In this document: positions 1 to 14,461 of the stretch, piece after piece | Layout: every line of letters starts with the position of its first letter | How positions within the stretch are numbered: the stretch's first letter is position 1 | IMG/VR virus record: IMGVR_UViG_2681813004_000014 | Location: 1-15,890 of that record | From: a virus | Taxonomy: Duplodnaviria; Heunggongvirae; Uroviricota; Caudoviricetes | Direction: 5' to 3' (one strand) | DNA: 15,890 bases | The notes under the pieces: generated by a model | Database searches by the model: none | Seen by the model: only the letters and a program-made list of their open reading frames with translations | What the model was told of the DNA's origin: nothing | Position numbers and translations under genes: made by a program

Positions 1-78
1 CCGCTGAGCAGGCGGTCGGTTCTGGGCAGGGTCGGGTTCGTCCTGAAAACTCCCCCCCACCCCGTCCGGCTGCCTCAT
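1..78 (-). CDS. N-terminal fragment of a gene continuing past the left window edge (possibly a terminase subunit)
   Basis: ATG at 76-78 on minus strand overlaps the upstream stop (ATGA coupling); reading frame MRQPDGVGGEF... stays open to position 1. Identity is a guess from operon context. Confidence 0.3.
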   Translation of the reverse strand, partial: MRQPDGVGGSFQDEPDPAQNRPPAQR

Positions 79-260
79 CAGCGATTGCGAAAACATTCCA
101 TGACCTCGCGGTCACGGTCGGTTAATCGCTTCGCTGTGGTGCGTTTTGTGCGCCCTGTCCTGTTGGCTTTGTGCTCTGTCTCCTGTGTCTTCCATGTGTC
201 ACGCTGCCTTATCAGTCCACGTATCAGCCTGGTTTGCTCCTGTTCAGTCATCATCGCCAT
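78..260 (-). CDS. Hypothetical small basic protein (~60 aa)
   Basis: C-terminal part of track ORF 78..494; the N-terminal part overlaps the HNH gene in another frame, so an internal Met (MAMMTEQEQTRLIRGL...) is the likely start. Rich in R/K/T, no recognised motif. Confidence 0.3.
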   Translation of the reverse strand: MAMMTEQEQTRLIRGLIRQRDTWKTQETEHKANRTGRTKRTTAKRLTDRDREVMECFRNR

Positions 261-684
261 ACATCCAGTCGTTACGGTGTGCCGCCCGTTCTTCCTGCTC
301 GCGATACATGCCCGCTTTACGGTTTGCTTTCGTGGCTGGATCTTCCCGTGTGGTCTTACGGTTGTGGCACGTCTGGCACAATGCCTGGTGATTCCACTCA
401 GGCCAGAAGAGAACATCATTACCGCCATCGATGGGGATAATGTGATCCACCACCACGGCGGGCGTGTATATTCCTTTTTCCAGGCAATGCGCACATAACG
501 GGTTTTTACTCAGGTACATAGCGCGGTATTTCTCCCACTGCCTCGTATACCCTCGCTCCCTGCTGCTGCCTCTCCGGCTGTCCTGCTGCTGGCGTGCGCT
601 GCGTCTGTGCTCCTCACACTTCCCGGACTTCACGCGCCTGTTGCAGCCTGGTTGTGTGCATCGTCTCAATGGTTGCCACGGCAT
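244..684 (-). CDS. HNH endonuclease
   Basis: Cys-rich N-terminus (CTQPGCNRRVKSGKCEEH) and HNH core motif DHIIPIDGGNDVLFWPEWNHQALCQTCHNRKT; start overlaps the upstream connector stop. Confidence 0.8.
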   Translation of the reverse strand: MPWQPLRRCTQPGCNRRVKSGKCEEHRRSARQQQDSRRGSSRERGYTRQWEKYRAMYLSKNPLCAHCLEKGIYTPAVVVDHIIPIDGGNDVLFWPEWNHQALCQTCHNRKTTREDPATKANRKAGMYREQEERAAHRNDWMYGDDD

Positions 685-980
685 CAGTACACCCCCACAT
701 CACGATAAACCGACCAGAGCGCGGAAATCGTCAGGGGAATTTCTTTTGTATCGGTATCGCCAAGCGTTGTCCGGTACTCGTACAGTTGCGAGATGTACAT
801 CAGGCAACCAATTTTTATTGCAGGGGTAAATTCCAGGCCGTCATCAAAACGCCTGCCAATATGCTTCTGGCATACCTCCAGCGCCGCGCTTATGTATGCC
901 TGAATCAGTGTGTCTTCTGTGTTACCATCTATGCGGCAGTGAAGTTTGGCCTCTTCCAGGGTTATTTTTTCTGCTGTCAT
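684..980 (-). CDS. Head-tail connector protein (gp6-like)
   Basis: 98 aa, N-terminus MTAEKITLEEAKLHCRIDGNTEDTLIQAYISAA typical of gp6-like connectors; sits in the head operon. Confidence 0.7.
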   Translation of the reverse strand: MTAEKITLEEAKLHCRIDGNTEDTLIQAYISAALEVCQKHIGRRFDDGLEFTPAIKIGCLMYISQLYEYRTTLGDTDTKEIPLTISALWSVYRDVGVY

Positions 981-1315
981 TTTTCTGTACCCACCTTTGC
1001 CAGAATTTCCAGCCGGGTTCTTTTCGCATCAGGTAAGGGGATCCCGATGATATTAAGCGTGCTCCCGGCAAAAGCGCCGGTAAGCACTTTCAGGCGACTG
1101 GCGGCGGATATGTCGCCACGATAGCGAACCCATACCCGAATCGTTGCAGGTGCGGTTTCTGCGCCTGCGGTCAGTAATTCCCGTCCGCTGATCCCCTTGA
1201 CCTCTGCCCAGATGGTTTCCCCTTCCGTCCATATCTGCTGGATCGCACCTGACGGCAGGCGCTGTGTGGTAAATGTCATAATCGTCACCCGGTCCCGCAT
1301 CTTTCCGGCTATCAT
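977..1315 (-). CDS. Head closure / head-tail adaptor protein (gp7 / SPP1 gp16-like)
   Basis: 112 aa with MRDRVTI...IWAEVKGISGRE...IRVWVRYRGDI pattern; 4-bp overlap with portal stop. Confidence 0.65.
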   Translation of the reverse strand: MIAGKMRDRVTIMTFTTQRLPSGAIQQIWTEGETIWAEVKGISGRELLTAGAETAPATIRVWVRYRGDISAASRLKVLTGAFAGSTLNIIGIPLPDAKRTRLEILAKVGTEK

Positions 1316-2529
1316 TCGTCACCGCCCTTACTGTTCTTGCTGATTGTCACTTCCTGCTTCCATGCCTGGCTGAACTCGTCACCACCTTCACGCGGCGGCA
1401 TTCCCTCACGCTCACGGGCTTCGTTCGGATTGATGATCCCGTTCTTAATCCCTTTCTCATACGTGGCGTAACGTTCGGTAGGGGTGGCGCGTAATAAATC
1501 GGCTGAATCAAACTCAACCAGATAACGGGTTCCAGGCACGGGAGAAGCCACCAGCAAAGCGGCCTTGATTTGCTGTTCGAAGTTCGCCAACCAAGGACGC
1601 ATTGTCATGGTCAGAAACGCGCGGCTTGCCTCACTGAAATTGCTGTAGGTGCTGTTGCTGTATTCCTGCAAAAAAATCGGCGAGACGTTGAACATTCGGG
1701 CGATGTCTTCAATGGTAAAGCGACGGGAGGCCAGCCATTCAGCATCCTGATTACTCATGCCCAGCTGCTGATAGCTCATACCCCCTTCAAGGATGGGCGT
1801 TTTTCCGGCGTTTCTGGCCCCTTTGTAGCGTTCCAGTGCGGCTAATGCCTGTTTGCCCTTCACGCCGTCCAGCCATTCGCCTGACGTGATAACCCCTGCC
1901 GCCATCATGCCATCACGCATCACGCTCGCGCCGTGGCGTTGTTGGGCCAGCCCAAGCCCCAGCGATTCGCGGCAGATGGTTACAGGTGAGCGCCCCATAA
2001 AGCCGTCATCCGTGGAGTAACGAAGGTGGAGAACCTCCCACGGTAAATAGTTGCGGGTGTTTCCGGTGTAGGCGTCAGTGATGCAGTAGCGCCAGTTATG
2101 CTCACCTGTCTGCTCCACGTTCACCGACTGCGGCGGGTAAGGATGTAAAGCCACCGGAAAACCATCACGCCCCCACTGAATCACCGCATAAGCATTACCG
2201 TTTAACAGGCAGTGGCGGATCATCATTCGCTTAAACTGGTAGGGGGTTTGCCATGCGTTCGGGCGCTCGTTGAGGATGTGATCGACCGGATGAGAATCAA
2301 GCCACTCGCGGGCCTCCTTCCCCTTCTCATTGCGTACCAGGTACAGGTAACACGGCATGGTAGCCACCGCCTCAGAGATGACCGTCACGGCGTTCATGAC
2401 GGCGGGCAGTGATTCCGCTGTCCCCGATGATACGTACTCACCCGCCCCCGTGTTCGATGTGCCCGCCAGCGCCATAAATTCATCAAGCGTCATGCTGCGC
2501 TGCTCTTTTTTTCTTCTGAAAAGCCACAT
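1312..2529 (-). CDS. Portal protein, HK97 family (copy 1)
   Basis: 405 aa; near-identical to ORF 3552..4760 except the C-terminal tail; immediately upstream of prohead protease. Confidence 0.85.
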   Translation of the reverse strand: MWLFRRKKEQRSMTLDEFMALAGTSNTGAGEYVSSGTAESLPAVMNAVTVISEAVATMPCYLYLVRNEKGKEAREWLDSHPVDHILNERPNAWQTPYQFKRMMIRHCLLNGNAYAVIQWGRDGFPVALHPYPPQSVNVEQTGEHNWRYCITDAYTGNTRNYLPWEVLHLRYSTDDGFMGRSPVTICRESLGLGLAQQRHGASVMRDGMMAAGVITSGEWLDGVKGKQALAALERYKGARNAGKTPILEGGMSYQQLGMSNQDAEWLASRRFTIEDIARMFNVSPIFLQEYSNSTYSNFSEASRAFLTMTMRPWLANFEQQIKAALLVASPVPGTRYLVEFDSADLLRATPTERYATYEKGIKNGIINPNEAREREGMPPREGGDEFSQAWKQEVTISKNSKGGDE

Positions 2530-2530
2530 A

Positions 2531-3103
2531 TCACACCCCCGCTAAATCCACCCACCAGCGGCGATTATCCGCACGCGGCATTTTTTCGGGGTGCTGCTCA
2601 TACAGGGAACGGCGGGCCAGCTCCACGCCGGAATCGGGGTAAGCCGGTACCGATGTAACGGTAATTTCGTACAGTTCCGCCACCAGCACGGTACGAACGC
2701 ATGGATCTGTTGTGGTATCCCATACATCCTTACGGGAGCGAAAGCCAAAGCTCATGCCGGATATATCACCGCGTTTAACCAGTTCGATAACGTCGCGCCC
2801 TGTACTGGTATCCGGTGGGGTCAGTTCAAAGCGTAACCCTGTTTCGTCCTCTTCCAGTTTCAGCGTGCCGGAACGGGTGCGCCCCAGTAACATGCTGTGG
2901 TCATGCTCATACAGGCCGCGAACGTCATTACCCGCCGCAAGCCATTCAGTAAACGCCCCCCGCTGGAATTTTTCGTAAAACTCACCCCATAACAGTTCTG
3001 AAAGCTTATCCCAGCGAACAACGTAGCCCGTCAGCGTACCGGCTCCGCTCGTGGTGATTTCCGATGACCGGATTTCCATACTCTTCATAATTTTTTCACC
3101 CAT
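2531..3103 (-). CDS. Prohead protease, HK97 family (copy 1)
   Basis: 190 aa with DHSMLLGRTRSGTLKL and GMSFGF motifs; identical in protein sequence to ORF 4762..5334. Confidence 0.85.
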   Translation of the reverse strand: MGEKIMKSMEIRSSEITTSGAGTLTGYVVRWDKLSELLWGEFYEKFQRGAFTEWLAAGNDVRGLYEHDHSMLLGRTRSGTLKLEEDETGLRFELTPPDTSTGRDVIELVKRGDISGMSFGFRSRKDVWDTTTDPCVRTVLVAELYEITVTSVPAYPDSGVELARRSLYEQHPEKMPRADNRRWWVDLAGV

Positions 3104-3113
3104 AAAACACTAA

Positions 3114-3131
3114 AGGGGCTTTTAAGCCCCT
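3114..3131 (-). terminator. Hairpin 3' of the capsid-derived ORF (copy 1 of duplicated unit)
   Basis: Inverted repeat aggggct/agcccct with 4-nt loop followed on minus strand by a T-rich run; possible partial terminator or mRNA stabiliser. Confidence 0.3.
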
Positions 3132-3142
3132 TCTGTATGCTG

Positions 3143-3559
3143 TTAATCGTCGTCCTGTGGCAGTTCCAGAATCTTGATCGCGTTCGAATCCACCACGCCA
3201 CCGCCTAAATATTTCTGCGTGAAAATTTTGATGAAGCCCGGCTCTGTGATGTTGTCCGGTCTGGTGCGAACACCTGTTTCGTGATCAACAATGTAGTAAC
3301 CGCGTTTGAAGTCACCCAGGGCAATAACGTTATCAGGCATAAACTCCAGATATTCGACCGGAAGGCCCAGCAACGTATCAGGATCACCCGCCTGTAAACG
3401 GTCGCGCCAGATGTAATCACCGTTCGCGTTCTTCACCTTCTGAAGTTTTGCCGATGACGCGTTTCTTGTATACATTTTCAGAAGTTCGCCTTCTCCGGAA
3501 AAGTCATCAAGGCGAAGATGTGCCCTGACTTCATCAGGTGTAATTTTTTCTTCACTCAT
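3143..3559 (-). pseudogene. Chimeric ORF: gp6-like connector N-terminus (~35 aa) fused in frame to the last ~103 aa of the major capsid protein
   Basis: C-terminal part is identical to the end of capsid ORF 5374..6576; N-terminus MSEEKITPDEVRAHLRLDD resembles the start of connector ORF 684..980; Shine-Dalgarno-like aaggtg sits 6 nt upstream of ATG at 3559. Track ORF extends to 3640 but that region overlaps portal copy 2. Confidence 0.55.
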
Positions 3560-4760
3560 CTTTTTCACCTTTAATTTCCACCGTCTGCTTCCATGCCTGG
3601 CTGAATTCGTCGCCACCTTCACGCGGCGGCATCCCCTCACGTTCGCGGGCTTCGTTCGGATTCATGATCCCGTTCTTAATCCCTTTCTCATACGTGGCGT
3701 AACGTTCGGTAGGGGTGGCGCGTAATAAATCGGCTGAATCAAACTCAACCAGATAACGGGTACCAGGTACGGGAGAAGCCACCAGCAAAGCAGCCTTGAT
3801 TTGCTGTTCGAAGTTCGCCAGCCACGGGCGCATTGTCATGGTCAGAAACGCGCGGCTTGCCTCACTGAAATTGCTGTAGGTGCTGTTGCTGTATTCCTGC
3901 AAAAAAATCGGCGAGACGTTGAACATTCGGGCGATGTCTTCAATGGTAAAGCGACGGGAGGCCAGCCATTCAGCATCCTGATTACTCATGCCCAGCTGCT
4001 GATAGCTCATACCCCCTTCAAGGATGGGCGTTTTTCCGGCGTTTCTGGCCCCTTTGTAGCGTTCCAGTGCGGCTAATGCCTGTTTGCCCTTCACGCCGTC
4101 CAGCCATTCGCCTGACGTGATAACCCCTGCCGCCATCATGCCATCACGCATCACGCTCGCGCCGTGGCGTTGTTGGGCCAGCCCAAGCCCCAGCGATTCG
4201 CGGCAGATGGTTACAGGTGAGCGCCCCATAAAGCCGTCATCCGTGGAGTAACGAAGGTGGAGAACCTCCCACGGTAAATAGTTGCGGGTGTTTCCGGTGT
4301 AGGCGTCAGTGATGCAGTAGCGCCAGTTATGCTCACCTGTCTGCTCCACGTTCACCGACTGCGGCGGGTAAGGATGTAAAGCCACCGGAAAACCATCACG
4401 CCCCCACTGAATCACCGCATAAGCATTACCGTTTAACAGGCAGTGGCGGATCATCATTCGCTTAAACTGGTAGGGGGTTTGCCATGCGTTCGGGCGCTCG
4501 TTGAGGATGTGATCGACCGGATGAGAATCAAGCCACTCGCGGGCCTCCTTCCCCTTCTCATTGCGTACCAGGTACAGGTAACACGGCATGGTAGCCACCG
4601 CCTCAGAGATGACCGTCACGGCGTTCATGACGGCGGGCAGTGATTCCGCTGTCCCCGATGATACGTACTCACCCGCCCCCGTGTTCGATGTGCCCGCCAG
4701 CGCCATAAATTCATCAAGCGTCATGCTGCGCTGCTCTTTTTTTCTTCTGAAAAGCCACAT
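3552..4760 (-). CDS. Portal protein, HK97 family (copy 2)
   Basis: 402 aa; same as copy 1 except a different C-terminal tail (…KQTVEIKGEKDE). Confidence 0.85.
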   Translation of the reverse strand: MWLFRRKKEQRSMTLDEFMALAGTSNTGAGEYVSSGTAESLPAVMNAVTVISEAVATMPCYLYLVRNEKGKEAREWLDSHPVDHILNERPNAWQTPYQFKRMMIRHCLLNGNAYAVIQWGRDGFPVALHPYPPQSVNVEQTGEHNWRYCITDAYTGNTRNYLPWEVLHLRYSTDDGFMGRSPVTICRESLGLGLAQQRHGASVMRDGMMAAGVITSGEWLDGVKGKQALAALERYKGARNAGKTPILEGGMSYQQLGMSNQDAEWLASRRFTIEDIARMFNVSPIFLQEYSNSTYSNFSEASRAFLTMTMRPWLANFEQQIKAALLVASPVPGTRYLVEFDSADLLRATPTERYATYEKGIKNGIMNPNEAREREGMPPREGGDEFSQAWKQTVEIKGEKDE

Positions 4761-4761
4761 A

Positions 4762-5334
4762 TCACACCCCCGCTAAATCCACCCACCAGCGGCGATTATC
4801 CGCACGCGGCATTTTTTCGGGGTGCTGCTCATACAGGGAACGGCGGGCCAGCTCCACGCCGGAATCGGGGTAAGCCGGTACCGATGTAACGGTAATTTCG
4901 TACAGTTCCGCCACCAGCACGGTACGAACGCATGGATCTGTTGTGGTATCCCATACATCCTTACGGGAGCGAAAGCCAAAGCTCATGCCGGATATATCAC
5001 CGCGTTTAACCAGTTCGATAACGTCGCGCCCTGTACTGGTATCCGGTGGGGTCAGTTCAAAGCGTAACCCTGTTTCGTCCTCTTCCAGTTTCAGCGTGCC
5101 GGAACGGGTGCGCCCCAGTAACATGCTGTGGTCATGCTCATACAGGCCGCGAACGTCATTACCCGCCGCAAGCCATTCAGTAAACGCCCCCCGCTGGAAT
5201 TTTTCGTAAAACTCACCCCATAACAGTTCTGAAAGCTTATCCCAGCGAACAACGTAGCCCGTCAGCGTACCGGCTCCGCTCGTGGTGATTTCCGATGACC
5301 GGATTTCCATACTCTTCATAATTTTTTCACCCAT
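4762..5334 (-). CDS. Prohead protease, HK97 family (copy 2)
   Basis: Protein identical to copy 1. Confidence 0.85.
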   Translation of the reverse strand: MGEKIMKSMEIRSSEITTSGAGTLTGYVVRWDKLSELLWGEFYEKFQRGAFTEWLAAGNDVRGLYEHDHSMLLGRTRSGTLKLEEDETGLRFELTPPDTSTGRDVIELVKRGDISGMSFGFRSRKDVWDTTTDPCVRTVLVAELYEITVTSVPAYPDSGVELARRSLYEQHPEKMPRADNRRWWVDLAGV

Positions 5335-5344
5335 AAAACACTAA

Positions 5345-5362
5345 AGGGGCTTTTAAGCCCCT
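5345..5362 (-). terminator. Hairpin 3' of the major capsid gene (copy 2 of duplicated unit)
   Basis: Same inverted repeat as 3114..3131, offset by 2231 bp. Confidence 0.3.
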
Positions 5363-5373
5363 TCTGTATGCTG

Positions 5374-6576
5374 TTAATCGTCGTCCTGTGGCAGTTCCAG
5401 AATCTTGATCGCGTTCGAATCCACCACGCCACCGCCTAAATATTTCTGCGTGAAAATTTTGATGAAGCCCGGCTCTGTGATGTTGTCCGGTCTGGTGCGA
5501 ACACCTGTTTCGTGATCAACAATGTAGTAACCGCGTTTGAAGTCACCCAGGGCAATAACGTTATCAGGCATAAACTCCAGATATTCGACCGGAAGGCCCA
5601 GCAACGTATCAGGATCACCCGCCTGTAAACGGTCGCGCCAGATGTAATCACCGTTCGCGTTCTTCACCTTCTGAAGTTTTGCCGCCGTTGTGGAGTTAAC
5701 CACCCATACCGCGTTCTTGCGGTATTTTTTACGCAATGCAAATTTCAGGTCGATCAGCGGGTCCGCAGATGTCCACGCCAGACCGTGAGCGGGCTTGATA
5801 ACCTGCAACGTTCCGAAGTCGCGTTCTTTGTCGCTCTTCTCTGCACGGGGGACGGATAAAAAGCCTTTTGCTTTTTTGTCACCGTCGCCCACAACCAGAT
5901 CGCTTTCTTCGGTTTCCGTGAAGGTGTCGCCAATCTCGCCCGTCAGCCATGAAAGGATGTCCACATCGGAAAAATCCACGATTTCCTGTGTGGTGCGCGG
6001 GTACGCATAGACCGGATACAGCTTAATGCTCACCTCGTTAATCTTCGGGGTGCTGGTCTGTTCGCGTGCCTTACCCTCTTCACCGTGGTTAACGGTCGCA
6101 CCGCCAGCGGAAACAAGCTGCTTAAACTCGTTGCTGCTGATTTTCTTCACGGTACAGATGCGGCGCATGGTGGATTCATCCGCCAGTATTCGCATGATTT
6201 CGGTGTTCAGTTCGGGGATAACGGTATAACCACCATCAGCGGCAACGCCTGTACTTAATGCGCGGGTTTCACCTGTCAGAATGTAGTTGCGTAGTTCTGC
6301 GGGGTCAGTGGTCTGACTGCTTTTACCTGGCTTGCTGCGCTCTTCGTCTGCAATGGCTTCAAGGCGGGAAATGTCTTTATCGAGGGATTCAGCTTTAGCG
6401 CGTAATTCGTCAAATTTTGCGCCCTCAGCATCGTTAAGACTGCGGTTTTCTTTTTCCGCGTTCTCCAGCATGTCGCGCATCTGATTTTTAATGGCGGTTT
6501 TCTGCTGGCGTAATTCGATTATTCTCGGCATAAAAAAAAGTCCTGGGGTTAAGTAAGGAACTCCAGGACGCGACAA
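5374..6576 (-). CDS. Major capsid protein, HK97 family, with N-terminal coiled-coil delta domain
   Basis: 400 aa; N-terminal heptad-rich segment (IIELRQQKTAIKNQMRDMLENAEKE…) then a capsid-like body. Track start at 6576 is a TTG; an ATG at 6531 (MPRIIELRQQ) is an alternative start. Confidence 0.85.
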   Translation of the reverse strand: MSRPGVPYLTPGLFFMPRIIELRQQKTAIKNQMRDMLENAEKENRSLNDAEGAKFDELRAKAESLDKDISRLEAIADEERSKPGKSSQTTDPAELRNYILTGETRALSTGVAADGGYTVIPELNTEIMRILADESTMRRICTVKKISSNEFKQLVSAGGATVNHGEEGKAREQTSTPKINEVSIKLYPVYAYPRTTQEIVDFSDVDILSWLTGEIGDTFTETEESDLVVGDGDKKAKGFLSVPRAEKSDKERDFGTLQVIKPAHGLAWTSADPLIDLKFALRKKYRKNAVWVVNSTTAAKLQKVKNANGDYIWRDRLQAGDPDTLLGLPVEYLEFMPDNVIALGDFKRGYYIVDHETGVRTRPDNITEPGFIKIFTQKYLGGGVVDSNAIKILELPQDDD

Positions 6577-6902
6577 ACACTCAACCGTTTTTCATAAGGA
6601 AATCAGCAATCGCACCGATCGTTTTCCCGCCTGGTAATGAATATTGGCGAGCACATTAACAGGCGGTAAAGTGGCCCCAGCGTCCTGGCACCACGGGCGA
6701 GAATAATCATGATTCAGTTCGGGTAAAATATGCCGATCCGCTCAGTGAACAACCTGGAACAACCACGAACAAATAATTTACAAAACCTGAAAAAATAAAT
6801 AAGCTGTTCCGTACATTTTCTGCTCGTTAATCAGGAGGAACGAACTATGTCAGAAAATGAACTGAAAAAAGCAATGTTCATTCAGCAACACTTCTAAAAA
6901 TA

Positions 6903-6928
6903 ATGGCCTGGAAAATACCAGGCCATTA
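6903..6928. terminator. Bidirectional terminator-like hairpin
   Basis: Inverted repeat aatggcctgg / ccaggccatt with 6-nt loop; T-rich run follows on the minus strand directly after the stop of ORF 6934..7182. Confidence 0.45.
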
Positions 6929-6933
6929 TTATT

Positions 6934-7182
6934 CTACCGTTTCACGGGATCACGCATTCTGCGCCTTATTTTCCACAGATATTCGATCATCGCTTCCACC
7001 TGCTCACGGTTGGTTGCGAAAATTTCCCCGGTCAGTGAGCTGCGCAGAAAATCATTATGATCCACAAAAAATAACGCATCGGAAGAAAGCAGACGGCGAT
7101 ATTTTTTTGCTGTCGTGGTTTCCAGATCATCAAAACCATGAAACTTTTTATGTTGCTGGACTTCTTCAAATGTCACTGGCAT
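6934..7182 (-). CDS. Hypothetical protein (~82 aa)
   Basis: Track ORF 6934..7221; the internal ATG at 7182 is preceded by aggagg at 7-nt spacing, so it is the preferred start. No recognised motif. Confidence 0.5.
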   Translation of the reverse strand: MPVTFEEVQQHKKFHGFDDLETTTAKKYRRLLSSDALFFVDHNDFLRSSLTGEIFATNREQVEAMIEYLWKIRRRMRDPVKR

Positions 7183-7227
7183 GTTTCCTCCTGCTGCCAC
7201 GATACCAGAAACAGTTAACAACCGTTA

Positions 7228-7509
7228 TCAATTATCCCTTTTTTTCGGGTAGTTCCTGAACATCTCACCGCCAGGTTTCTGTAAGCCAATCCCGGTATGT
7301 GTGCGGTTTATGGCCTCTTTCAGTATTCCGAAATTATCCGGTATGACTGGTGGGCGTGCTGCCTTACGGATACATTCCGCGCGACGCTTTGCCACTTGTT
7401 CGCGCTCCTTGTCAGTGCTCACCAGCCACATAACATCAGCCCAACGTGCCGCCGCTCTCCGGTACAGCCCTTTAGCCTCCAGTTCTTCCGCTTTGCTGTC
7501 TTTAATCAT
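7228..7509 (-). CDS. PerC-like transcriptional regulator (putative)
   Basis: ~93 aa starting MIKDSKAEELEAKGLYRRAAARWADVM, a pattern I associate with PerC-family prophage regulators; gaggt lies 5-6 nt upstream of ATG 7509. Assignment is from memory of the family. Confidence 0.5.
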   Translation of the reverse strand: MIKDSKAEELEAKGLYRRAAARWADVMWLVSTDKEREQVAKRRAECIRKAARPPVIPDNFGILKEAINRTHTGIGLQKPGGEMFRNYPKKRDN

Positions 7510-7543
7510 GCTGTACCTCACTGCTTAAAACGGTATCCCGTCC

Positions 7544-7815
7544 CCGTACGGATCATCGTGCTGGCCTGTCTGTTGTTTTGCCCTGTTCAGTGCGTCAGTA
7601 GCCTGGCCCTGCTGGCCTTTTTTGCCGCCCGGTCGCACTGTCCGCGCACTGATTACGCTGTCTGCGATGACCTGCCAGCCCGTACGGATCATCGTGCTGG
7701 CCTGTCTGTTGTTTTGCCCTGTTCAGTGCGTCAGTGGCCTGGCCCTGTTGACCTTTTTTGCCGCCCGGTCGCGCCGTTCGCGCACTGATTACGCTGTCTG
7801 CGATAACCTGCCAGC
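7544..7815. repeat. Tandem 136 bp duplication (2 copies, a few mismatches) at the 3' end of ssb
   Basis: 7544..7679 and 7680..7815 align at a 136 bp offset with a handful of substitutions. Confidence 0.85.
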
Positions 7816-8086
7816 CCTGCCGCGTTTCGCCGTTCTGGCCTGTCCACTGGCTTACCTGCATGTTACCCGCCACGCTCACCAGTTCGCCTTTCTGGTGTTT
7901 TGCCAGTGCCTCGGCCTGTCTGCCAAACGCCAGGACGGATAACCACATCGTCGCCGTTCCGTCATCTGCCTGGCTGCACGGAAGGGGGACCGCCATACTC
8001 GCCATCGCCATTTGTGTCCCCTTGCTGGTCTGTTTTACCTGCGGGTCAGCCACCAGCCGCCCGTAAGCTGCTATCTGTGCTGTCAT
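7595..8086 (-). CDS. ssb: Single-stranded DNA-binding protein with frameshifted C-terminus
   Basis: N-terminal OB-fold-like region (…TMWLSVLAFGRQAEALAKHQKGELVSVAGNMQVSQW…). The 136 bp duplication is not a multiple of 3, so the ORF ends in an out-of-frame tail; the canonical ending …HDDPYGDGIPF* is present in another frame, stopping at 7526. Confidence 0.7.
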   Translation of the reverse strand: MTAQIAAYGRLVADPQVKQTSKGTQMAMASMAVPLPCSQADDGTATMWLSVLAFGRQAEALAKHQKGELVSVAGNMQVSQWTGQNGETRQGWQVIADSVISARTARPGGKKGQQGQATDALNRAKQQTGQHDDPYGLAGHRRQRNQCADSATGRQKRPAGPGY

Positions 8087-8334
8087 GCTGTCTGCTCTCC
8101 GGTTTTAACGTTGATGGTTGTTACCTGTTCCGCTCCGGCAATCTCCCGTTGTGTCAGCGTGGCAAAGTTTGCCGCCGCTGTGGTCATGAATGCGCTAATC
8201 AGTTCGGGATGCGCTTTCGCGTATCCTTCTCCGGCGTGGCGGTCTATCGTTCTGATTGCCACCTTTAAGGCGTGCTCTGTCATGTCTAACGCTTTATATT
8301 TTGGCGCTGTCTTATCTCTGGTTTTTCTGTTCAT
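8083..8334 (-). CDS. Hypothetical protein (start uncertain: 8364, 8334 or 8283)
   Basis: Track ORF 8083..8364; the 5' part lies inside the iteron array, so a later start is more plausible. Stop overlaps ssb start. Confidence 0.4.
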   Translation of the reverse strand: MNRKTRDKTAPKYKALDMTEHALKVAIRTIDRHAGEGYAKAHPELISAFMTTAAANFATLTQREIAGAEQVTTINVKTGEQTA

Positions 8335-8550
8335 TCCCCACCACTCCCCACTTTTGCTCCCCACTTTTTAAATTCCCCACTTGCTCCCCACCTCGTTTTT
8401 TGAGTGAATGTAATGCTTTGTTTTTCATTGCGTTTTTTACTCCCCACTTTTTTGGATGTATACAGGTGGGAAAGTGGGGAATTATGTTTCAATTTTGTTA
8501 AATTCCCCACTCTCCCCACTTTTACTACCCACTTTTTACAGTGGGTAAAC
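8334..8550. repeat. Iteron array, putative replication origin
   Basis: At least 9 direct copies of (t)tccccac(tttt), inverted copies near 8463-8482, an AT-rich spacer around 8394-8440, and a palindrome tacccac…gtgggta at 8526-8546; directly 3' of the replication gene. Confidence 0.6.
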
Positions 8551-9942
8551 ATCATCCCCATCGACACAAATCACGCCGTCTTTTTCCAGCTTGGACAGCC
8601 AGCGCCGGAAGTGCTTCATCTCATACCCCAGCTTTTTCATATCGTCGCGGAGAAGGGCGATAGTGCATGGCTCTTTGTGTGCCGTCCGCGTTCTGATGCA
8701 CTGCCATAGCGCGGCGTGATTCTCCGATTTGTTGCCTGCTTCCTCGATGCGCTCCAGTTCAGCAGGGGCGCGGGGAACGTCAATCACCACCATAGACACA
8801 ATCTCTTCCCCATCGGTATCGGTAAACACCTCCACGCTTTTAAGGTCGTATGCACTCTCTTTTGGCTCCTCTGCGTCCTTCATCTTCGTACACGCCGCCA
8901 CCAGTGCTGTAACGTCTGAATTTTCCCGGCTGATTCGGTACTCTGCATCAAGCGCGGCACGGAATGCGCTGGAACCACGCGCCCCCTTTGTTTCATCCTT
9001 GCCGGAATGGTGAACCACCAGCACCGTGGCCCCTGTGGCCTGCTTTATCGCGTCACACCCCTGGATAAATGCGCCCATATCACGGGAATCATTTTCATCA
9101 TTCCCACCAAAGCAACGGGCCAGTGTGTCGATCACAATCAGCCGCACATTTTCGCCCGTTCTGCTCTTAACAAGTCCGGCAGTCCTGATAACCTGCTCCA
9201 CATAGTCAGGCGATGCAGGGAAAACAGGCGCGTTAATGATGCACAAATCTGTAACCACCTTGTCGTGGGTTATCTCCCACGCCTTAACGCGGCGTTTTAC
9301 GCCCATACTGCCTTCGCCAGCGATATAGATAACCGCGCCCTTACTCACCCTGCGGCCTCCCCATGCCATACCTGTGGCAACATGGCACGACCAGGAAATG
9401 GCGAGGAACGATTTATAAGAACCGCTGGCCCCGTAGGTGCTGCATAATGACTCAGCCGGAATAAGCCCCTTAATGACGTAGCTTTGCTGCGCGTCGAATC
9501 CCTCAGAACCCCATGAGATGGGAAGCGTGATTTTTCTCTTTCCGCCATTCATGACCAGGCTTTCCCCTCTCTCCCATGTTTCCCGTAGTCGTGGTAGCTG
9601 GTCGCTCCAGTCCTCAAGCAGTTCGAAATTTTCAGAAAGTAGCCGCGCCTCCTGGACTCCGGCGATCGCCAGTTTTGTGGCAATGGTCAGCATCTGCATA
9701 TCGTCCAGGTTTCCGGCGCGTATGACCTTTACCCTGTATCGTCCTTCATCAACAATCTGTAAGTTGTCCAGTTCGCTTAACTGATAACGGCCCAGGTAAA
9801 CCGGAGGGATGGGATCGCCTGCTTTTTTGGCCTGTGCAATCATGTAATGTTCTGCAAAGGAGTGAGCATTATCACCCGCAAAAATAACCGCCTCAGTGTG
9901 TTTATCTTTCGGTAACAGTTTTACGTTCGGTGCAAGTTTCAT
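8536..9942 (-). CDS. Replication protein with RecA/RepA-like P-loop ATPase domain (putative primase-helicase)
   Basis: 468 aa; Walker A-like YGASGSYKSF, Walker B-like RLIVIDTLARCFGGNDEND, then VLVVHHSGKD…RGSSA, as in RepA/AAA_25-type replicative ATPases. Confidence 0.75.
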   Translation of the reverse strand: MKLAPNVKLLPKDKHTEAVIFAGDNAHSFAEHYMIAQAKKAGDPIPPVYLGRYQLSELDNLQIVDEGRYRVKVIRAGNLDDMQMLTIATKLAIAGVQEARLLSENFELLEDWSDQLPRLRETWERGESLVMNGGKRKITLPISWGSEGFDAQQSYVIKGLIPAESLCSTYGASGSYKSFLAISWSCHVATGMAWGGRRVSKGAVIYIAGEGSMGVKRRVKAWEITHDKVVTDLCIINAPVFPASPDYVEQVIRTAGLVKSRTGENVRLIVIDTLARCFGGNDENDSRDMGAFIQGCDAIKQATGATVLVVHHSGKDETKGARGSSAFRAALDAEYRISRENSDVTALVAACTKMKDAEEPKESAYDLKSVEVFTDTDGEEIVSMVVIDVPRAPAELERIEEAGNKSENHAALWQCIRTRTAHKEPCTIALLRDDMKKLGYEMKHFRRWLSKLEKDGVICVDGDDVYPL

Positions 9943-10226
9943 TTCTTACCCCCTGCGACCAGCATTTCACGGATTTTGCGGATATAACTTGCAGCACGTT
10001 TCTGATTAACGGCTTTACGATGGCCCACCAGCGTGAAATCACGCCGGAACTGATAAACAGGCATAACGCAGTCATATTCGTAGCCATCACGGCGGTAAGT
10101 GATGCGCCGTTCCTCCACGCCCTTAATCATTACCGTGCCGCCGTAGTTATCACGGAAAATATCGCCGGGACGGATTTCAGGACGAGCGGGGCCGCTGGCA
10201 TTAACGCCAGAATTTTTATTTTTCAT
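9939..10226 (-). CDS. Hypothetical protein (95 aa)
   Basis: ORF in the early operon with 4-bp overlap to the replication gene; no recognised motif. Confidence 0.5.
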   Translation of the reverse strand: MKNKNSGVNASGPARPEIRPGDIFRDNYGGTVMIKGVEERRITYRRDGYEYDCVMPVYQFRRDFTLVGHRKAVNQKRAASYIRKIREMLVAGGKK

Positions 10227-10231
10227 GTTTT

Positions 10232-10465
10232 TTATTCTCCGGTGTGCTGTTCTTTATATCTGTCGTGCAATAGGTCTATTTCCTGCAACTCTGTTATTAC
10301 AGGTTCAAGGAGAGTTATCAGAGATTTAATAATCCGCGCATTCTTTACATCACGCTCATTATCGCCAAATGTATCTGGATACATTTGCAATATTTCGTAC
10401 ATGCCTTCAGCGTAAGCAAGGGCACTAAATGCGCGGTCTATTGTTTCGTGGTAAATATCACGCAT
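10232..10465 (-). CDS. Hypothetical protein (77 aa)
   Basis: Tightly packed ORF in the same operon; no recognised motif. Confidence 0.45.
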   Translation of the reverse strand: MRDIYHETIDRAFSALAYAEGMYEILQMYPDTFGDNERDVKNARIIKSLITLLEPVITELQEIDLLHDRYKEQHTGE

Positions 10466-10466
10466 A

Positions 10467-11021
10467 TTAATCCCCGTCCGTCGTTTTTCTTAAAACAGTT
10501 TCCGTTACGAAATCAGCATAGTTAGCGGCGATATCAAGAATATTTAGCCCTGTATCCCTGTGCTCATCAGTGCAAAGAAAGAAAAAAGCCACCCGCATAA
10601 TTTCAGATATTGACGAAAGCGCATCAGCCGCATTATCAGGAACGCCGGAAAATTCCTGTTTCAGGGAATTAAAACGATCATCACGCATAACCCCCCCATT
10701 TTCACAATCAGCAATCAGGATGGCTTTAGCCTCATTCAGCGCCATATCAGCGGTTAGCTGTGCGTAGGCCAGCGAATGCGGGATTATTGCCCCTGTATAT
10801 TCCGGCTCTCTGGTAATGTGTTTTTCTGCGGTTGCTGCCGTGCATGAAATATCAATCAGCGCGTGCATTAGCGTTATGATGGCTTCGGCGGCTGCGTCCG
10901 GACGGATCTCTCTGGTAATGTGTTTTTCTGCGGTTGCTGCCGTGCATGAAATATCAATCAGCGCGTGCATTAGCGTTATGATGGCTTCGGCGGCTGCGTC
11001 CGGACGGATGTTATTGCACAT
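10467..11021 (-). CDS. Hypothetical protein (184 aa) with internal duplicated 34 aa segment
   Basis: Contains IRPDAAAEAIITLMHALIDISCTAATAEKHITRE twice in tandem. Confidence 0.5.
   Translation of the reverse strand: MCNNIRPDAAAEAIITLMHALIDISCTAATAEKHITREIRPDAAAEAIITLMHALIDISCTAATAEKHITREPEYTGAIIPHSLAYAQLTADMALNEAKAILIADCENGGVMRDDRFNSLKQEFSGVPDNAADALSSISEIMRVAFFFLCTDEHRDTGLNILDIAANYADFVTETVLRKTTDGD
10806..11009. repeat. Perfect tandem 102 bp duplication, in frame
   Basis: 10806..10907 is identical to 10908..11009. Confidence 0.85.
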
Positions 11022-11379
11022 GGCGCACCCCCTGAATAACCTGATATCCGCAACTGGTCAGCAATTCGATAAATTCCGGCAGTGTGCCGAAACAGCAATC
11101 ATCACGCAGCCGTTCGCAGGATACCTCGACGCCGTTTTCGTAGTGACTCACCATACATCCGGTAAAATGCAGATCATCATCGTGATGGCTCGTTGACGGT
11201 TTCATCAGTCGCGCACGTTCCGCCAGTTCAAGCAATGCTTCAACGCTTCCGGCAATTGCACCATCCGGCAGGTGATAATTACTTACTACGCGTCCATTCT
11301 CTACATTGACGAGTAGCTGTCCGGTAAATTTCTCACGAAACTGAACGCGGTTAAGATCGGTAAGTGACAGGTTAATCAT
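11011..11379 (-). CDS. Hypothetical protein (~122 aa)
   Basis: Internal ATG at 11379 (MINLSLTDLNRVQ…) is preceded by aggggg at about 7 nt; track ORF extends to 11496 but overlaps the upstream gene. Confidence 0.5.
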   Translation of the reverse strand: MINLSLTDLNRVQFREKFTGQLLVNVENGRVVSNYHLPDGAIAGSVEALLELAERARLMKPSTSHHDDDLHFTGCMVSHYENGVEVSCERLRDDCCFGTLPEFIELLTSCGYQVIQGVRHVQ

Positions 11380-11568
11380 GGTACACCCCCTGACGAATAC
11401 GGGCAGCGAATACAGCGACACAACCGGACGGGCAACGGTTACGCGCTTCGCGTTCTGTCCAGGCGGTGACGTGGATGATTTGGGATTCTCCGGCACTCAG
11501 TGCCAGAAAACGCCACACAAAGGCCGTTTGTGTGTGCGCTAGGCGTGGGGTATGCTGTTTTACAGCCA
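11372..11568 (-). CDS. Hypothetical small protein (~65 aa), first gene of the early operon
   Basis: ATG at 11568 with agaggt 7 nt upstream; MAVKQHTPRLAHTQTAFVWRFLAL…; the long track ORF 11372..12199 is rejected. Any resemblance to Icd-like small proteins is unverified. Confidence 0.4.
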
Positions 11569-11768
11569 TAATCGTTACCTCTTTTAACGGTTTGGTTAGA
11601 CGCCCCGTTACTGCTCCAACAGTACGGGGCTTCGTCGTTTCAATTGCTGAATTGCATATATCAGCCCTTGTGGTATTCAGATTACATTTAGGTGAATACC
11701 ATTTCAAGTCTTTTTTGGTATTCACTTTTGTATTACACTGCATCCCGTTATTAATCGGAGGTGCAAAT
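11569..11768. promoter_or_regulatory. Divergent promoter/operator region between the early operon and the RHH gene
   Basis: Half-site GGTATTCA at 11672-11679, its inverted copy at 11693-11700 (13 bp spacer) and a third copy at 11717-11724; imperfect hairpin at 11602-11630. Confidence 0.5.
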
Positions 11769-12074
11769 ATGTCCACGAGTTCTGTTAACAATAAGTCACA
11801 GCAACTGAATGCCAGATTTCCACATGAAGTAGTGAGTGGCATTGAGGCATCCCTACAGCCAGGGGAAACTAAAGCGAATTTTATAGTTACGGCTGTACGC
11901 GGTGAGATCGCCCGCCGCCAAGCAGAAGGAAGAAGAGAAAATCCCCTGGTTTCTTCGCTCGATGCACTGGCGCAGGTGGAAAAAATCGGTGTCAAAGCTG
12001 CCGAGGAGATCGGGCAACTCGTCGCCGTTGCGCGTGAAGAACTCCAGCGGCGCAAAGCCAAAGAACAGGAATAG
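11769..12074 (+). CDS. Ribbon-helix-helix-like DNA-binding protein (candidate island repressor)
   Basis: ggagg 8 nt upstream of ATG 11769; N-terminal region (…ARFPHEVVSGIEASL…FIVTAVRGEIARRQ) resembles Arc/CopG-type RHH; the only plus-strand island gene, divergent from the early operon. Confidence 0.55.
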   Translation: MSTSSVNNKSQQLNARFPHEVVSGIEASLQPGETKANFIVTAVRGEIARRQAEGRRENPLVSSLDALAQVEKIGVKAAEEIGQLVAVAREELQRRKAKEQE

Positions 12075-12162
12075 CCCACCAGCAAGCCAGCACACTGATC
12101 ACATTGCCCACCAGCCAGCAAACCGCTATGATGGCCGGGCTTATGTTTAGTGTTTTCCCATT

Positions 12163-12190
12163 GGCGACCGCCCCCGGTCGCCTTTGTTTT
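12163..12190 (+). terminator. Rho-independent terminator
   Basis: GC-rich hairpin ggcgaccg-cccc-cggtcgcc followed by tttgtttt, downstream of the RHH gene. Confidence 0.6.
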
Positions 12191-12209
12191 ATGTGCCATA
12201 TACTCCCCT

Positions 12210-12434
12210 TTACGCTGCCTTGCCTGAATTAATGCGATCCCGGCTTTTAACCCATTCCATAACCTCGGACAGCAGCCAACCTACAGAACGACCGCCCAGA
12301 TTAAGGCGTGACGGAAATCGCCCTTTTTTCTCCAGTTCGTAGCGTGTAGTGCGACACACTCCAGTTAACTTACGACATTCATCCTCACGGATTACGCGAT
12401 CTGATAGTGATTGAAATTGTGTATTTTGATTCAT
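12210..12434 (-). CDS. alpA: AlpA-family transcriptional regulator
   Basis: 74 aa; …CRKLTGVCRTTRYELEKKGRFPSRLNLGGRSVGWLLSEVMEWV matches the AlpA HTH pattern of CP4-57-type islands. Confidence 0.85.
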   Translation of the reverse strand: MNQNTQFQSLSDRVIREDECRKLTGVCRTTRYELEKKGRFPSRLNLGGRSVGWLLSEVMEWVKSRDRINSGKAA

Positions 12435-12528
12435 AAAAAACGTCCTCGAACGTTGCCGAACGAGGACGATTCTAGACGGTGGTAAAACGCCGTTTGTGTG
12501 ATATCACATTATCGGTACGTGATATCAC
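12435..12528 (-). promoter_or_regulatory. alpA leader hairpin plus two palindromic operator-like sites
   Basis: Hairpin 12441-12468 (cgtcctcg…cgaggacg) followed on the minus strand by TTTTTT and the alpA ATG; the right arm contains the only GAGGA upstream of alpA. Palindrome GTGATATCAC occurs at 12498-12507 and 12519-12528, centres 21 bp apart. Confidence 0.45.
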
Positions 12529-13244
12529 TTTTTGCGTTTTTGTTGAGATTCACGCCCCAAATACTTTTGCCATGTCTGCCAATGTGTTTTGGGAAATTCT
12601 ATCCCTCTGGATGCAGCTATAGAATCAATTAAATCTGCTATTTTAGGTAATGATTCCGTGTCTAGGTCTACATCACCCATTTCTGGAATAAGTTTAATTA
12701 AAGAGTAAATAACCTCATTCCTTTTTGCTGCTCTTTTGGGGTTATCTTCTGTAAGATTACGAAAACTACCTTCATCTTTTACATTATTTAAATCATCTGC
12801 CATCACACATAAATAATCAACATCTATATCAAATGGCTTGAGATTTTCCCCTTCTGGAGTTATTTCTAATCCACCGCCAAGTCTATCAGGGTAAAAATAT
12901 AATGTTGGTGAGCTTATGATGTTATTATGTTTAAACTCAATATCAGAGAACGCCTTTTTGTTTACATAGAAAAAACCAGCAATAAAATTTGCTATATATA
13001 ATCTATCATCTATTTCCTTCTCTAAATTAATTGTTTTGCCGTCCTGGAATATTAGTCCATTCCGTTTATTATCTTTAAATCCCTCAAGAAAATAAACCTC
13101 ACAGTTCCCAACACTATGCTCAGGAATAAATACAGAAATATCAATGGCACCTGTACTAGCGAAATGATAGAGATCCCTTATTGTACATCCTAACTTTTCT
13201 GCCGCTTCAGGTAACGGATAATAGAGTCTTTTAGGTAATTTCAT
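12525..13244 (-). CDS. Low-GC cargo protein of unknown function, possible N-terminal HTH
   Basis: 239 aa; markedly AT-rich compared with flanking int and alpA; N-terminus LPEAAEKLGCTIRDLYHFASTGAI resembles excisionase/MerR-type HTH; 4-bp overlap with int stop. Confidence 0.7.
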   Translation of the reverse strand: MKLPKRLYYPLPEAAEKLGCTIRDLYHFASTGAIDISVFIPEHSVGNCEVYFLEGFKDNKRNGLIFQDGKTINLEKEIDDRLYIANFIAGFFYVNKKAFSDIEFKHNNIISSPTLYFYPDRLGGGLEITPEGENLKPFDIDVDYLCVMADDLNNVKDEGSFRNLTEDNPKRAAKRNEVIYSLIKLIPEMGDVDLDTESLPKIADLIDSIAASRGIEFPKTHWQTWQKYLGRESQQKRKK

Positions 13245-14461
13245 TTAGCCACCTTCAGCATAACAATATTTTCATGATTTCCAGCCAGCACATCAAGACG
13301 CTCAACCCACAGATTCAACGCGTCCCGCTTTGCCTGTAAATAGCGTGAATGGTTATAGGTTTTTTGCTGACCGGGCATCTGATGCGCTGTGATGTGCTCC
13401 ACGATATGCGGATCGACACCTAAATCGTTCAGCATCGTTGTAAACGTGTGGCGAAAGTCATGCAGCGTCCAGTGTTCCTGGTTAAGCCGCTTATGCGCAT
13501 TTCGCCCATATTGCGCTACCGTGGTATCTTTTTTCAGTTCTCCGAGTAATAACCCTGTATGCCGGTTCTTCTCCACCAGCTTCTGAATGAACGGCAAAAT
13601 GCCATCGGGGATTGGCCTGAATATCGTTACCTTCGTTTTGCTATGCTCTTTTGGCACTGTCCACAACATTTCTTTCAGATCCCATTCTTTGATCTCTGAA
13701 AGTCTGACCTCTGCCGTTCTGCACCCGAACACAATCAGCAAGCGCATTAACGCGCTGTAGTAAGGCGCGAACACATCACCATCGATAGCGCGTAAAATTT
13801 CCTTTAATTCGCTGTTACTGTGCACCCTCTCGCGAATTTCTGCTCTCTTACCCACATCGCTGACGATCAAATCGTCCAGGGCATTACTGAACGCGTAGCG
13901 CCTCCTGCGGCAGAACTTTAGCGCCTGTTTGCAGGTTTGCATGACGTGCCCTGCTGCTACTGGTGCTTTTTTTCGTACACGGTCAAAACATGCGATCCAC
14001 TGCCTTGTATCGCATTTATCAAGAGGAATTGCCCCTATATGGCAAATGATGTGCTTATCCATACGTTGCACCAGCTTTATGTAGTCTTTGCGGTTACCCT
14101 TCGCATATTCATCCAGCCAGTAGTTAATCGCCTCCTTCACCGTAACGGGTTTTAGCGCTTCCTGTACTGTGGCGCACAACTCATAACGGGGGTTTTTACC
14201 CTCAGCCAGCCATGCCCGGCACTGTGCGCGTTTTTCCCTTGCAGCTTTCAGCGACAATTCAGGGTAAGCCCCCAGCTTTAACCGCTCTGCGGCAACCTCA
14301 CGGCCTCCCGTTCGGTACCGGAAATACCAGGTTAATTTGCCGCCCTTTGAGTGTTTAATCTCCAGCCCGCCCCCGTCGGAGTAAAAACGCTCTTTTTCTG
14401 CCTGGACAGCCGCCAATTTTTTTAACGTCGAATCGCTCAGTTTGTTTAGTGCTTTTCCCAC
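13241..14461 (-). CDS. int: Tyrosine integrase, P4-like
   Basis: 406 aa with catalytic-region pattern …LHDFRHTFTTMLNDLGVDPHIVEHITAHQ…YNHSRY; located at the island edge. Confidence 0.9.
   Translation of the reverse strand: MGKALNKLSDSTLKKLAAVQAEKERFYSDGGGLEIKHSKGGKLTWYFRYRTGGREVAAERLKLGAYPELSLKAAREKRAQCRAWLAEGKNPRYELCATVQEALKPVTVKEAINYWLDEYAKGNRKDYIKLVQRMDKHIICHIGAIPLDKCDTRQWIACFDRVRKKAPVAAGHVMQTCKQALKFCRRRRYAFSNALDDLIVSDVGKRAEIRERVHSNSELKEILRAIDGDVFAPYYSALMRLLIVFGCRTAEVRLSEIKEWDLKEMLWTVPKEHSKTKVTIFRPIPDGILPFIQKLVEKNRHTGLLLGELKKDTTVAQYGRNAHKRLNQEHWTLHDFRHTFTTMLNDLGVDPHIVEHITAHQMPGQQKTYNHSRYLQAKRDALNLWVERLDVLAGNHENIVMLKVAK

Follow-up and report, generated by a model that had tools for sequence, protein, structure and literature searches.

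The recurrence of one 15-nt sequence, AACAACCACGAACAA, at two distant points of a phage-related stretch of DNA raises the question of what connects the head genes of the element that carries it with its integrase gene. The stretch (hereafter the window) comprises 15,890 nucleotides of a Caudoviricetes record (IMG/VR IMGVR_UViG_2681813004_000014, positions 1 to 15,890) and is a capsid-forming phage-inducible chromosomal island (cf-PICI) of the EcCIEDL933 type, a phage satellite. Exact copies of the 15-mer lie at 6758-6772, upstream of the major capsid protein gene, and at 14604-14618, upstream of the integrase gene (int); both are on the plus strand and the genes that follow them are on the minus strand, so that the orientation relative to each gene is the same. 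The initial annotation had reported these copies as they are found here, and had proposed either an AlpA-type regulator box shared by int and the head operon or remnants of att-related or arm-type integrase sites. Its distance to int (about 145 bp) agrees with the 143 bp measured to the GTG at 14461. Its distance of about 185 bp to the capsid gene rested on an upstream TTG (6576) and becomes 217-241 bp from the ATG at 6531, which is taken as the start according to the annotation of RefSeq relatives (385 amino acids). The motif is real and non-random, and the phased arrays to which it belongs represent a cis-feature that defines the island family. Judged from sequence comparison, these arrays are probably (roughly 0.6) binding arrays for AlpA, which would serve as recombination directionality factor (RDF) in the att arms and as activator at the capsid promoter.

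Each copy of the 15-mer is the junction of two adjacent units in a run of head-to-tail decamers, with the consensus TTGTTCnnnG on the gene-sense strand, a strict 10-bp period and three units per array. Taken alone, one exact pair would not be unusual in 15.9 kb (our estimate is about 0.1 for any 15-mer), and the pair is significant because each copy sits within such a three-unit direct-repeat array. Allowing up to two mismatches, five sites were found in the window (the two exact copies together with 6748, 14540 and 14614), compared with 0.04 expected from 200 dinucleotide shuffles. A scan for tandem triples, using a position-weight matrix trained on the window arrays and sister sites, returned exactly three places on either strand where 0.005 were expected at a score of at least 25, and all three arrays lie on the same strand. 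The capsid-operon upstream array (6747-6776, minus strand) holds the first 15-mer copy and reads GAACAACCTG GAACAACCAC GAACAAATAA on the plus strand, or TTTGTTCGTG GTTGTTCCAG GTTGTTCACT in the gene sense. The second copy is held by the core-proximal array of attL (14603-14632, minus strand; plus-strand units AAACAACCAC GAACAACCCC GAACCACAAA, gene-sense TTTGTGGTTC GGGGTTGTTC GTGGTTGTTT), which lies about 18-47 bp from the att core. The third, distal array of attL (14539-14568, minus strand; plus-strand units GAACAACGAC GAACAATAAC AAACAAGAAA, gene-sense TTTCTTGTTT GTTATTGTTC GTCGTTGTTC) adjoins a doubled motif discussed below. Direct repeats phased at about one helical turn (10 bp from start to start, three units per array) are the arrangement looked for in an RDF array such as X1-X1.5-X2 of lambda Xis or I1-I5 of KplE1 TorI.

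Conservation of the motif in related islands, which the initial annotation had put forward as a check, was surveyed in 80 cf-PICI loci gathered from IMG/VR by means of a capsid alignment, plus E. coli loci (86 loci, 1.19 Mb, both strands). Arrays scoring at least 22 number 150, and all but one of them fall into four location classes: 80 upstream of the capsid gene, 35 at the downstream end or attR, 12 in attL, and 22, inverted, in the int-alpA intergenic region. The last class is found in EcCICFT073-type islands, in which an array of four to five units between the int stop codon and alpA is inverted relative to the arm arrays (L093 4195-4242; L011 9990-10025; L016 ~4261). One locus, L031, has an additional array just downstream of alpA (position 2551). 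A scan of genome contigs with the AlpA of the window recovered only four distant, unrelated loci.

Upstream of the capsid gene, the block TTTTGTAAATTA-TTTGTTCGTGG-TTGTTCCAsG-TTGTTC is present in 80 of the 86 loci and spans three capsid lineages (about 98, 74 and 65% amino acid identity to the window) as well as every AlpA and Int allele. Although their leaders cannot otherwise be aligned, capsid lineages share a 49-bp block, array included, at 100% identity. The conserved element TTTTGTAAATTA (6774-6785, minus strand), at the upstream edge of the array, is kept even in the divergent L068, L071, L077 and L082 and forms the 5' boundary of this capsid-module regulatory block; the sequence farther upstream is mosaic. 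Downstream of the array, a sigma-70 promoter of the capsid/packaging operon is predicted at 6727-6700 (minus strand; -35 TTTACC at 6727-6722, a 16-nt spacer, -10 TATTCT at 6705-6700), with a predicted start near 6693. The pattern TTTAC(A/C/T)-N16-TA(T/A)nnT, followed after 5 nt by a conserved hairpin, occurs in all capsid lineages at a fixed distance from the array, a point in favor of the AlpA reading. The array would occupy about -50 to -79 of the predicted start, with units at about -54 to -59, -64 to -69 and -74 to -79. A stricter consensus scan for promoters and terminators called neither this promoter nor the leader hairpin, and both predictions rest on conservation and folding.

The two arrays near int are best understood from the complete relative L002, in which a 14-bp block, ATACGGGTATTTCT, is identical at both island ends. 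In the window this att core identity block lies at 14650-14663, inside the thiM thiamine pyrophosphate (TPP) riboswitch. In the window orientation, the right end of L002 shows the int start, two copies of CTGACCACACA, about 16 nt, the distal array, an AT-rich segment of about 35-45 nt, the core-proximal array, CAAAAAACACTAAATG and the core; its left end shows the core, about 70 nt, and then the identical doublet plus one array. Since the doublet-plus-array block recurs in attR, both int-side arrays belong to the attL arm. In the window they are likewise placed between the core and the doublet CTGACCACACA-A-CTGACCACACA (14499-14521, minus strand), about 20-110 bp from the core, with the int start at 14461, as expected of RDF sites. 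Relatives that have other integrases and sit elsewhere in the chromosome follow the same arm plan (L004 at clpS/cspD; L011 and CFT073 at roxA/phoQ; L092 at yhdJ/fis), as do L055-type elements inside prophage genes, and the position of the core-proximal array is the same in relatives with other integrases (L004, L011/L016, L093). The intervening sequence CAAAAAACACTAAATG (14629-14644), between the core-proximal array and the core, is also conserved across islands with differing integrases and att cores (L011, L016, L093) and may be a host-factor or core-type site.

The arms therefore contain two kinds of repeat, and these vary with different proteins. The doublet differs by island type: CTGACCACACA in the window, TAACTACACC in L004 and L011, GTGATACACC in L003, GTGCAGTCAGT in L082 and TGTGTATTGCA in L055, which is of the helper-embedded PICI type. 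The beta-strand region of the Int N-terminal arm-binding domain (NDGGNLSVRHST(N/S)GLLTWYFTYRAGTGR) is nearly identical in L004 and L011, which have a common doublet, and yet their AlpAs differ. Conversely, the AlpAs of the window and L004 are 100% identical over 63 amino acids; these two islands have the same TTGTTCG arrays in spite of different doublets and of Ints that are only 67% identical. In L011-type islands, where the AlpA allele has diverged from that of the window, the arm units read TTGTT(C/T)C. In a count for which unit detection was restricted to the first six columns of the matrix, position 7 was G in 40 of 46 arm units from islands with window-type AlpA (and two different Ints), and C in all 38 units from islands with L011-type AlpA. 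Over approximately three independent lineages, the doublet thus appears to follow Int and the array appears to follow AlpA, the behavior looked for in RDF sites, which should change with the RDF allele and not with the integrase. The doublets, tracking the Int N-terminal domain, are accordingly candidate Int arm-type sites. A search of L003 for a second repeat family common to the arms and the rest of the island found none. The distant cf-PICI L070, whose Int is unrelated, carries a differing 10-bp arm repeat (CTCAnCAAAC) without a copy at its capsid promoter, and was set aside as uninformative.

The doublet also bears on a doubled attP motif, tgTGTATTGCantgTGTATTGCa, described for helper-embedded PICIs, for which the binder was left open between the Int arm domain and AlpA and which was reported absent from other PICIs (Tommasini et al. 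2023, PMC10111431). As with the CTGACCACACA doublet, there are two co-oriented copies, one per attP arm, and the L055 doublet is that very motif. The present islands differ in that each Int clade has its own doublet and in that the GTTC arrays form a second, distinct element.

The island encodes a small winged-helix protein that is the candidate binder for these sites. Its alpA gene (12210-12434, minus strand) specifies a 74-amino-acid AlpA-family protein (PF05930, E=2e-16) that matches PHROG 2790, 'excisionase and transcriptional regulator', and an AlpA family protein in the PDB (8C3T, 6e-8). AlpA is the master activator of Gram-negative PICIs and is required for induction, activating the alpA promoter (PalpA) and not the int promoter (Pint) (Fillol-Salom 2018, PMC6092414; Alqurainy 2022, 10.1101/2022.09.08.507074). 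EcCICFT073 and EcCIEDL933, the islands of those studies, belong to the same family as the window; in the literature searched, neither an AlpA binding site nor a capsid-operon promoter has been defined. The PalpA-lacZ fusion of EcCICFT073 that AlpA activates (PMC6092414) was made with primers that map to L093 4128-4583, a fragment holding the five-unit array at 4195-4242. Overexpression of AlpA alone leads to excision and replication of EcCICFT073 (PMC6092414), and an alpA-overexpressing strain was used for making EcCIEDL933 tail-less capsids (bioRxiv 10.1101/2025.02.11.637232). Since alpA overexpression alone yields capsids, no helper-encoded activator is needed for the capsid operon.

Taken together, the arrays are most likely cooperative binding sites for AlpA as an excisionase/regulator. 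The idea of a shared AlpA-type site in the initial annotation is thus upheld to the extent that the copies belong to one array class for which AlpA is the best candidate binder, given that the arm arrays differ by allele and that the AlpA-responsive PalpA fragment holds an array. As with the operators of dual-function RDFs, the att arms and the capsid promoter carry the same decamer arrays, as does the int-alpA interval of EcCICFT073-type islands. In attL (two arrays) and attR (one array, outside the window), AlpA would act as RDF, bending the DNA beside the Int arm-type doublets and so permitting excision. At the capsid operon, AlpA bound to the array, a short way upstream of the -35, would turn the packaging module on, and in EcCICFT073-type relatives the inverted four- to five-unit array would serve AlpA autoactivation. 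Expression of alpA induced by a helper phage would in this way lead to both excision and capsid-gene expression through one DNA code. Whereas the anatomy, positions, conservation and allele tracking of the arrays are direct observations, AlpA as their binder and activation as the effect at the capsid promoter are what we infer.

Small winged-helix proteins of this dual kind have precedents among temperate phages and mobile elements. Apl of phage 186 and Vis of P4 are dual-function RDF/regulators, Vis being a member of the AlpA family and P4 itself a satellite. P2 Cox (PMC3936717) and RdfS of ICEMlSymR7A (PMC11963761) are likewise small winged-helix RDFs whose repeats serve in promoter regulation as well. 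In common with the arrangement proposed here, one small (winged) helix-turn-helix protein and phased direct repeats at att and at promoters link excision with transcriptional switching in all of these systems. They differ in that they mostly repress or modulate early or lysogenic promoters, save for the effects of Cox and Vis on P4 PLL, while the promoter target here is the cf-PICI capsid/packaging operon and the predicted effect is activation; the sites and proteins also differ in sequence. A further comparison is offered by the RDF TorI of KplE1 (CPS-53), which binds attL at five sites grouped as a pair and a triplet, the members of the triplet being 2 nt apart, with cores GTTCG, GATCG and GTCCG (Panis et al. 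2010, PMC2951348). Both systems involve a small winged-helix RDF, a 10-bp period, a near-identical core (TTGTTCG here) and an int gene transcribed inward from attL. Unlike the arrays described here, the TorI sites lie on one arm and overlap PintS, TorI represses intS, and no TorI site at a late promoter has been described (PMC2951348). A sequence relationship between TorI and AlpA, considered in view of the GTTCG resemblance, was undetectable, and the resemblance is kept as an analogy only.

Several observations weigh against AlpA as the binder of all arrays. From one AlpA allele to another, the array at the capsid promoter hardly varies and lacks the covariation seen in the arms, and L003-type islands, whose AlpA is 45% identical, keep the capsid box while their arms show a single TTGTTCG unit. 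The window has no array before alpA, even though autoactivation by the AlpA of a relative is reported. The presence of arrays on both arms (the attR arm of complete relatives also has an array beside the doublet) is atypical for RDF sites of the lambda/KplE1 type, which would be expected on one arm only, and TorI was not among the PDB matches of the window AlpA at E<=1, with no detectable sequence similarity. The allele tracking covers about three independent lineages only, many loci being near-identical copies. It is further weakened by the complete copy L092, in which the attR array has GTTCG units where the L082/L092 flavour, the only visibly different one, is GTTCA; position 7 is therefore not strictly allele-fixed, and the apparent covariation in this group is weak. 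For the same reason, a 9-mer shared by the arm and the capsid box of L082 (GTTCATTGC, each once in 15 kb), at first taken as strong covariation, was downgraded.

The invariance of the capsid box is compatible with three readings: the AlpA alleles may share a core GTTC specificity, the box may be a composite that suits all alleles, or another factor may bind it. At position 7, the three decamers of the capsid array have G, C and A/G, a combination that all backbones retain. A composite, allele-independent operator usable by any AlpA allele is a tentative proposal, with the odds clearly against it. If true, it would explain the free reassortment of HK97-type packaging modules among PICI backbones with differing integrases and AlpAs, and the hairpins of the capsid leader, including a terminator-like one, would add a second, post-initiation gate.

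Binding of the capsid-side array, and perhaps of all arrays, by some other factor, with AlpA acting indirectly, is the alternative that survives best, although it too is improbable. The candidates are a host response regulator that recognizes decameric direct repeats, or a different protein of the island, for instance the PerC-like one whose gene is just upstream. The capsid box is invariant whatever the AlpA allele, including in islands without arm arrays; many islands have, upstream of the capsid operon, a PerC-family gene (7228-7521 in the window, minus strand); and direct repeats with a TGTTC core presumably resemble response-regulator boxes such as TorR boxes. Some islands with the box (L003, L009), however, lack PerC, and we know of no PerC DNA site. 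The arm arrays track the AlpA allele, and alpA overexpression alone suffices for capsid production, with which a cascade is still compatible.

The version of the initial annotation, in which AlpA would activate int and the head operon alike from a common type of box, is unlikely. The motif does occur in the same orientation upstream of both genes, and the original work on CP4-57, as it is cited in PMC6092414 and PMC10111431, is credited with the finding that AlpA raises int expression. The int-side arrays, however, are part of the attL arm by the core, and their equivalent in attR lies far from int, with no gene to activate. In EcCICFT073, AlpA was without effect on Pint-lacZ (PMC6092414), and the published primers map, with small mismatches, to L093 ~2621-3469, a fragment that includes the whole of attL and both arrays. 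Between the arrays and int of the window, no sigma-70-like int promoter was found, the only promoter-like site being the thiM promoter that reads inward. The response of PalpA, the lack of response of Pint and the overexpression results therefore disfavor int activation; they are as expected if AlpA is an RDF in the arms and turns on the packaging operon, either directly or via a cascade.

That the arrays are arm-type binding sites for Int, with the capsid-side copy a stray or an Int-regulated site, is very unlikely. Like arm-type sites, the arrays occur in both att arms in direct orientation. Yet the adjacent doubled motif changes with the Int N-terminal domain whereas the arrays do not, being identical in the window and L004 although the Int N-domains are 60% identical. 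Arrays are also present in two places that have no core site, the capsid promoter and the int-alpA interval, and the capsid-side array is conserved across Ints down to 45-48% identity. The att-related alternative of the initial annotation was thus right in placing sites in the att arms, but these sites look functional and are not remnants, and it is the doublet that tracks Int. Lastly, a chance repeat in low-complexity sequence or a functionless recombination scar is already contradicted by the comparative data and hardly credible, for although an exact 15-mer pair is no rarity and the capsid box is located at a mosaic boundary, the near-matches and tandem arrays far exceed expectation, 149 arrays keep to four fixed location classes and the 49-bp block is fully conserved between capsid lineages.

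Below the array, the capsid operon is preceded by a structured 5' leader of about 162 nt (6532-6694, minus strand; fold z = -2.6). It consists of hairpin 1 at 6694-6671 with a GACG loop, hairpin 2 at about 6666-6627, formed on a conserved CCGCCUG, and a terminator-like hairpin at 6569-6540 with a T8 run (6539-6532) directly before the capsid ATG (6531), without a Shine-Dalgarno sequence. Across lineages, six of the nine pairs of hairpin 1 show compensatory changes and 96.8% of cells are paired (leaders including L003, L051, L068, L071 and L082), with the loop G(A/G)CG. The terminator-like hairpin is restricted to capsid lineage 1. No Rfam family matched the leader, and its hairpins may have a cis-regulatory or stabilizing function in the RNA. 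The capsid gene and alpA resemble each other in being preceded by a GC-rich hairpin and a T6-T8 run that reaches the ATG without a Shine-Dalgarno sequence (6569-6532 and 12468-12435, minus strand), and the 5' arms of the two hairpins are alike (CGTCCTGG and CGTCCTCG). The alpA hairpin is kept through compensatory changes in related alleles, and other alpA alleles have a hairpin sequestering the Shine-Dalgarno sequence or a clear terminator instead. The hairpin and T-run at alpA suggest post-initiation gating of alpA, possibly a point of helper-phage action.

Terminators directly upstream of the first gene of a target operon, as before capsid and alpA here, are also a feature of the P. aeruginosa antiterminator that shares the name AlpA. 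That protein has eight helices, contacts DNA through residues 128-142, has a Q21-like fold and uses an AlpA-binding element between -35 and -10 (PMC7969949, PMC9371919). Antitermination of this type through a hairpin and U-run was considered and rejected as an argument from homology: the protein is unrelated to the 74-amino-acid AlpA, and the element lies inside the promoter and not, like the array, upstream of the -35. The array thus does not conform to an antitermination element of the Q or P. aeruginosa AlpA type. Near alpA, an operator-like palindrome, GTGATATCAC, occurs twice upstream of the gene (12528-12519 and 12508-12497) and is also found in L001 and L077, and the C-terminal part of a 275-amino-acid open reading frame (ORF) at 11372-12199 matches PHROG 'transcriptional repressor' families. 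Upstream of the capsid box, a variable segment (6786-6933) contains a plus-strand ORF of 16 codons with a strong ribosome-binding site (6848-6898) and a bidirectional terminator-like hairpin (6896-6933); L001/L002 lack this segment, and L072 and strain TUM1886 have it.

The remaining features of the window conform to the assignment as a cf-PICI of the EcCIEDL933 type, for which gene set and insertion site have been described (preprint 10.1101/2022.09.08.507074). Genes were called by BLAST against complete E. coli genomes and their RefSeq annotation, Pfam and PHROGs. The gene set includes int, alpA, primase/helicase, an own HK97-type capsid, protease, portal, connectors and HNH as well as a dedicated att site, and tail and lysis genes are absent from the gene order of the window and of the complete relatives L001/L002. 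Nearly all genes are on the minus strand, in the transcription order int (13241-14461, minus strand; a tyrosine integrase of the P4/CP4-57 type with an Arm-DNA-bind_3 N-domain in Pfam), a hypothetical gene, alpA, several small genes, a RepA-type helicase gene (9942 to 8536, minus strand), iteron-like repeats, SSB, the PerC-family gene, a 95-amino-acid ORF and the capsid gene (5374-6531, minus strand; first of the HK97-type packaging operon, 97.7-97.9% identity to RefSeq 'phage major capsid protein'). Genes for the HK97 prohead protease, portal, head closure, connector and HNH follow. The window ends inside the HNH gene, and terS/terL and attR are visible in relatives only. The iteron-like repeats (8325-8540), directly downstream of the helicase gene, comprise TTTTRCTCCCCACTTTTT at a spacing of about 84 bp, many TCCCCAC units and inverted copies, and are probably the island replication origin. 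Three tandem duplications are present in the window and absent from the E. coli relatives examined, and may be real or assembly artefacts: one of 2047 bp (99.4% identity; 1354-3400 versus 3585-5631) spanning the protease gene and most of the portal gene, one of 136 bp (95%) within the SSB gene, and a perfect one of 102 bp (7543-7814 and 10806-11009, respectively).

With regard to the insertion site, int, alpA and the thiM-rcnR location of the window match E. coli O157:H7-type loci. The right flank carries rcnR and rcnA, and complete relatives extend leftward with terS, terL and thiM. The island is inserted within the aptamer of the thiM TPP riboswitch: Rfam gives no match in the window at the gathering score, and a partial TPP match below threshold at 14594-14699 (minus strand), with the 5' half of the aptamer at 14645-14699. 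A thiM promoter-like site (14753 to 14725) and the aptamer 5' half point into the island toward int (window 14640-14760; L002 2900-2960). The entire island thereby cuts thiMD off from its own promoter, leaving these genes reachable only from the island late operon or from an island-borne promoter.

Other elements are known in which one small protein serves att arms and promoters by way of the same repeats, and the sites, the promoter and the allele tracking described here appear unreported for PICIs in the literature searched. Genetic work has identified AlpA as the master switch of Gram-negative PICIs and cf-PICIs, and the arrays would supply its DNA targets. They constitute a concrete cis-code, for which coordinates, a predicted promoter and an allele-specific base can be given, and which would link alpA induction, excision at attL and attR, and capsid production. 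Two elements of the attP arms that an earlier study left unassigned can now be separated, namely the Int doublets and the AlpA-type arrays. In practical terms, the arrays offer a compact signature for annotating this island family and a handle for engineering delivery particles based on cf-PICIs. For the biology of the family, they suggest how packaging modules stay functional after swaps between island backbones.

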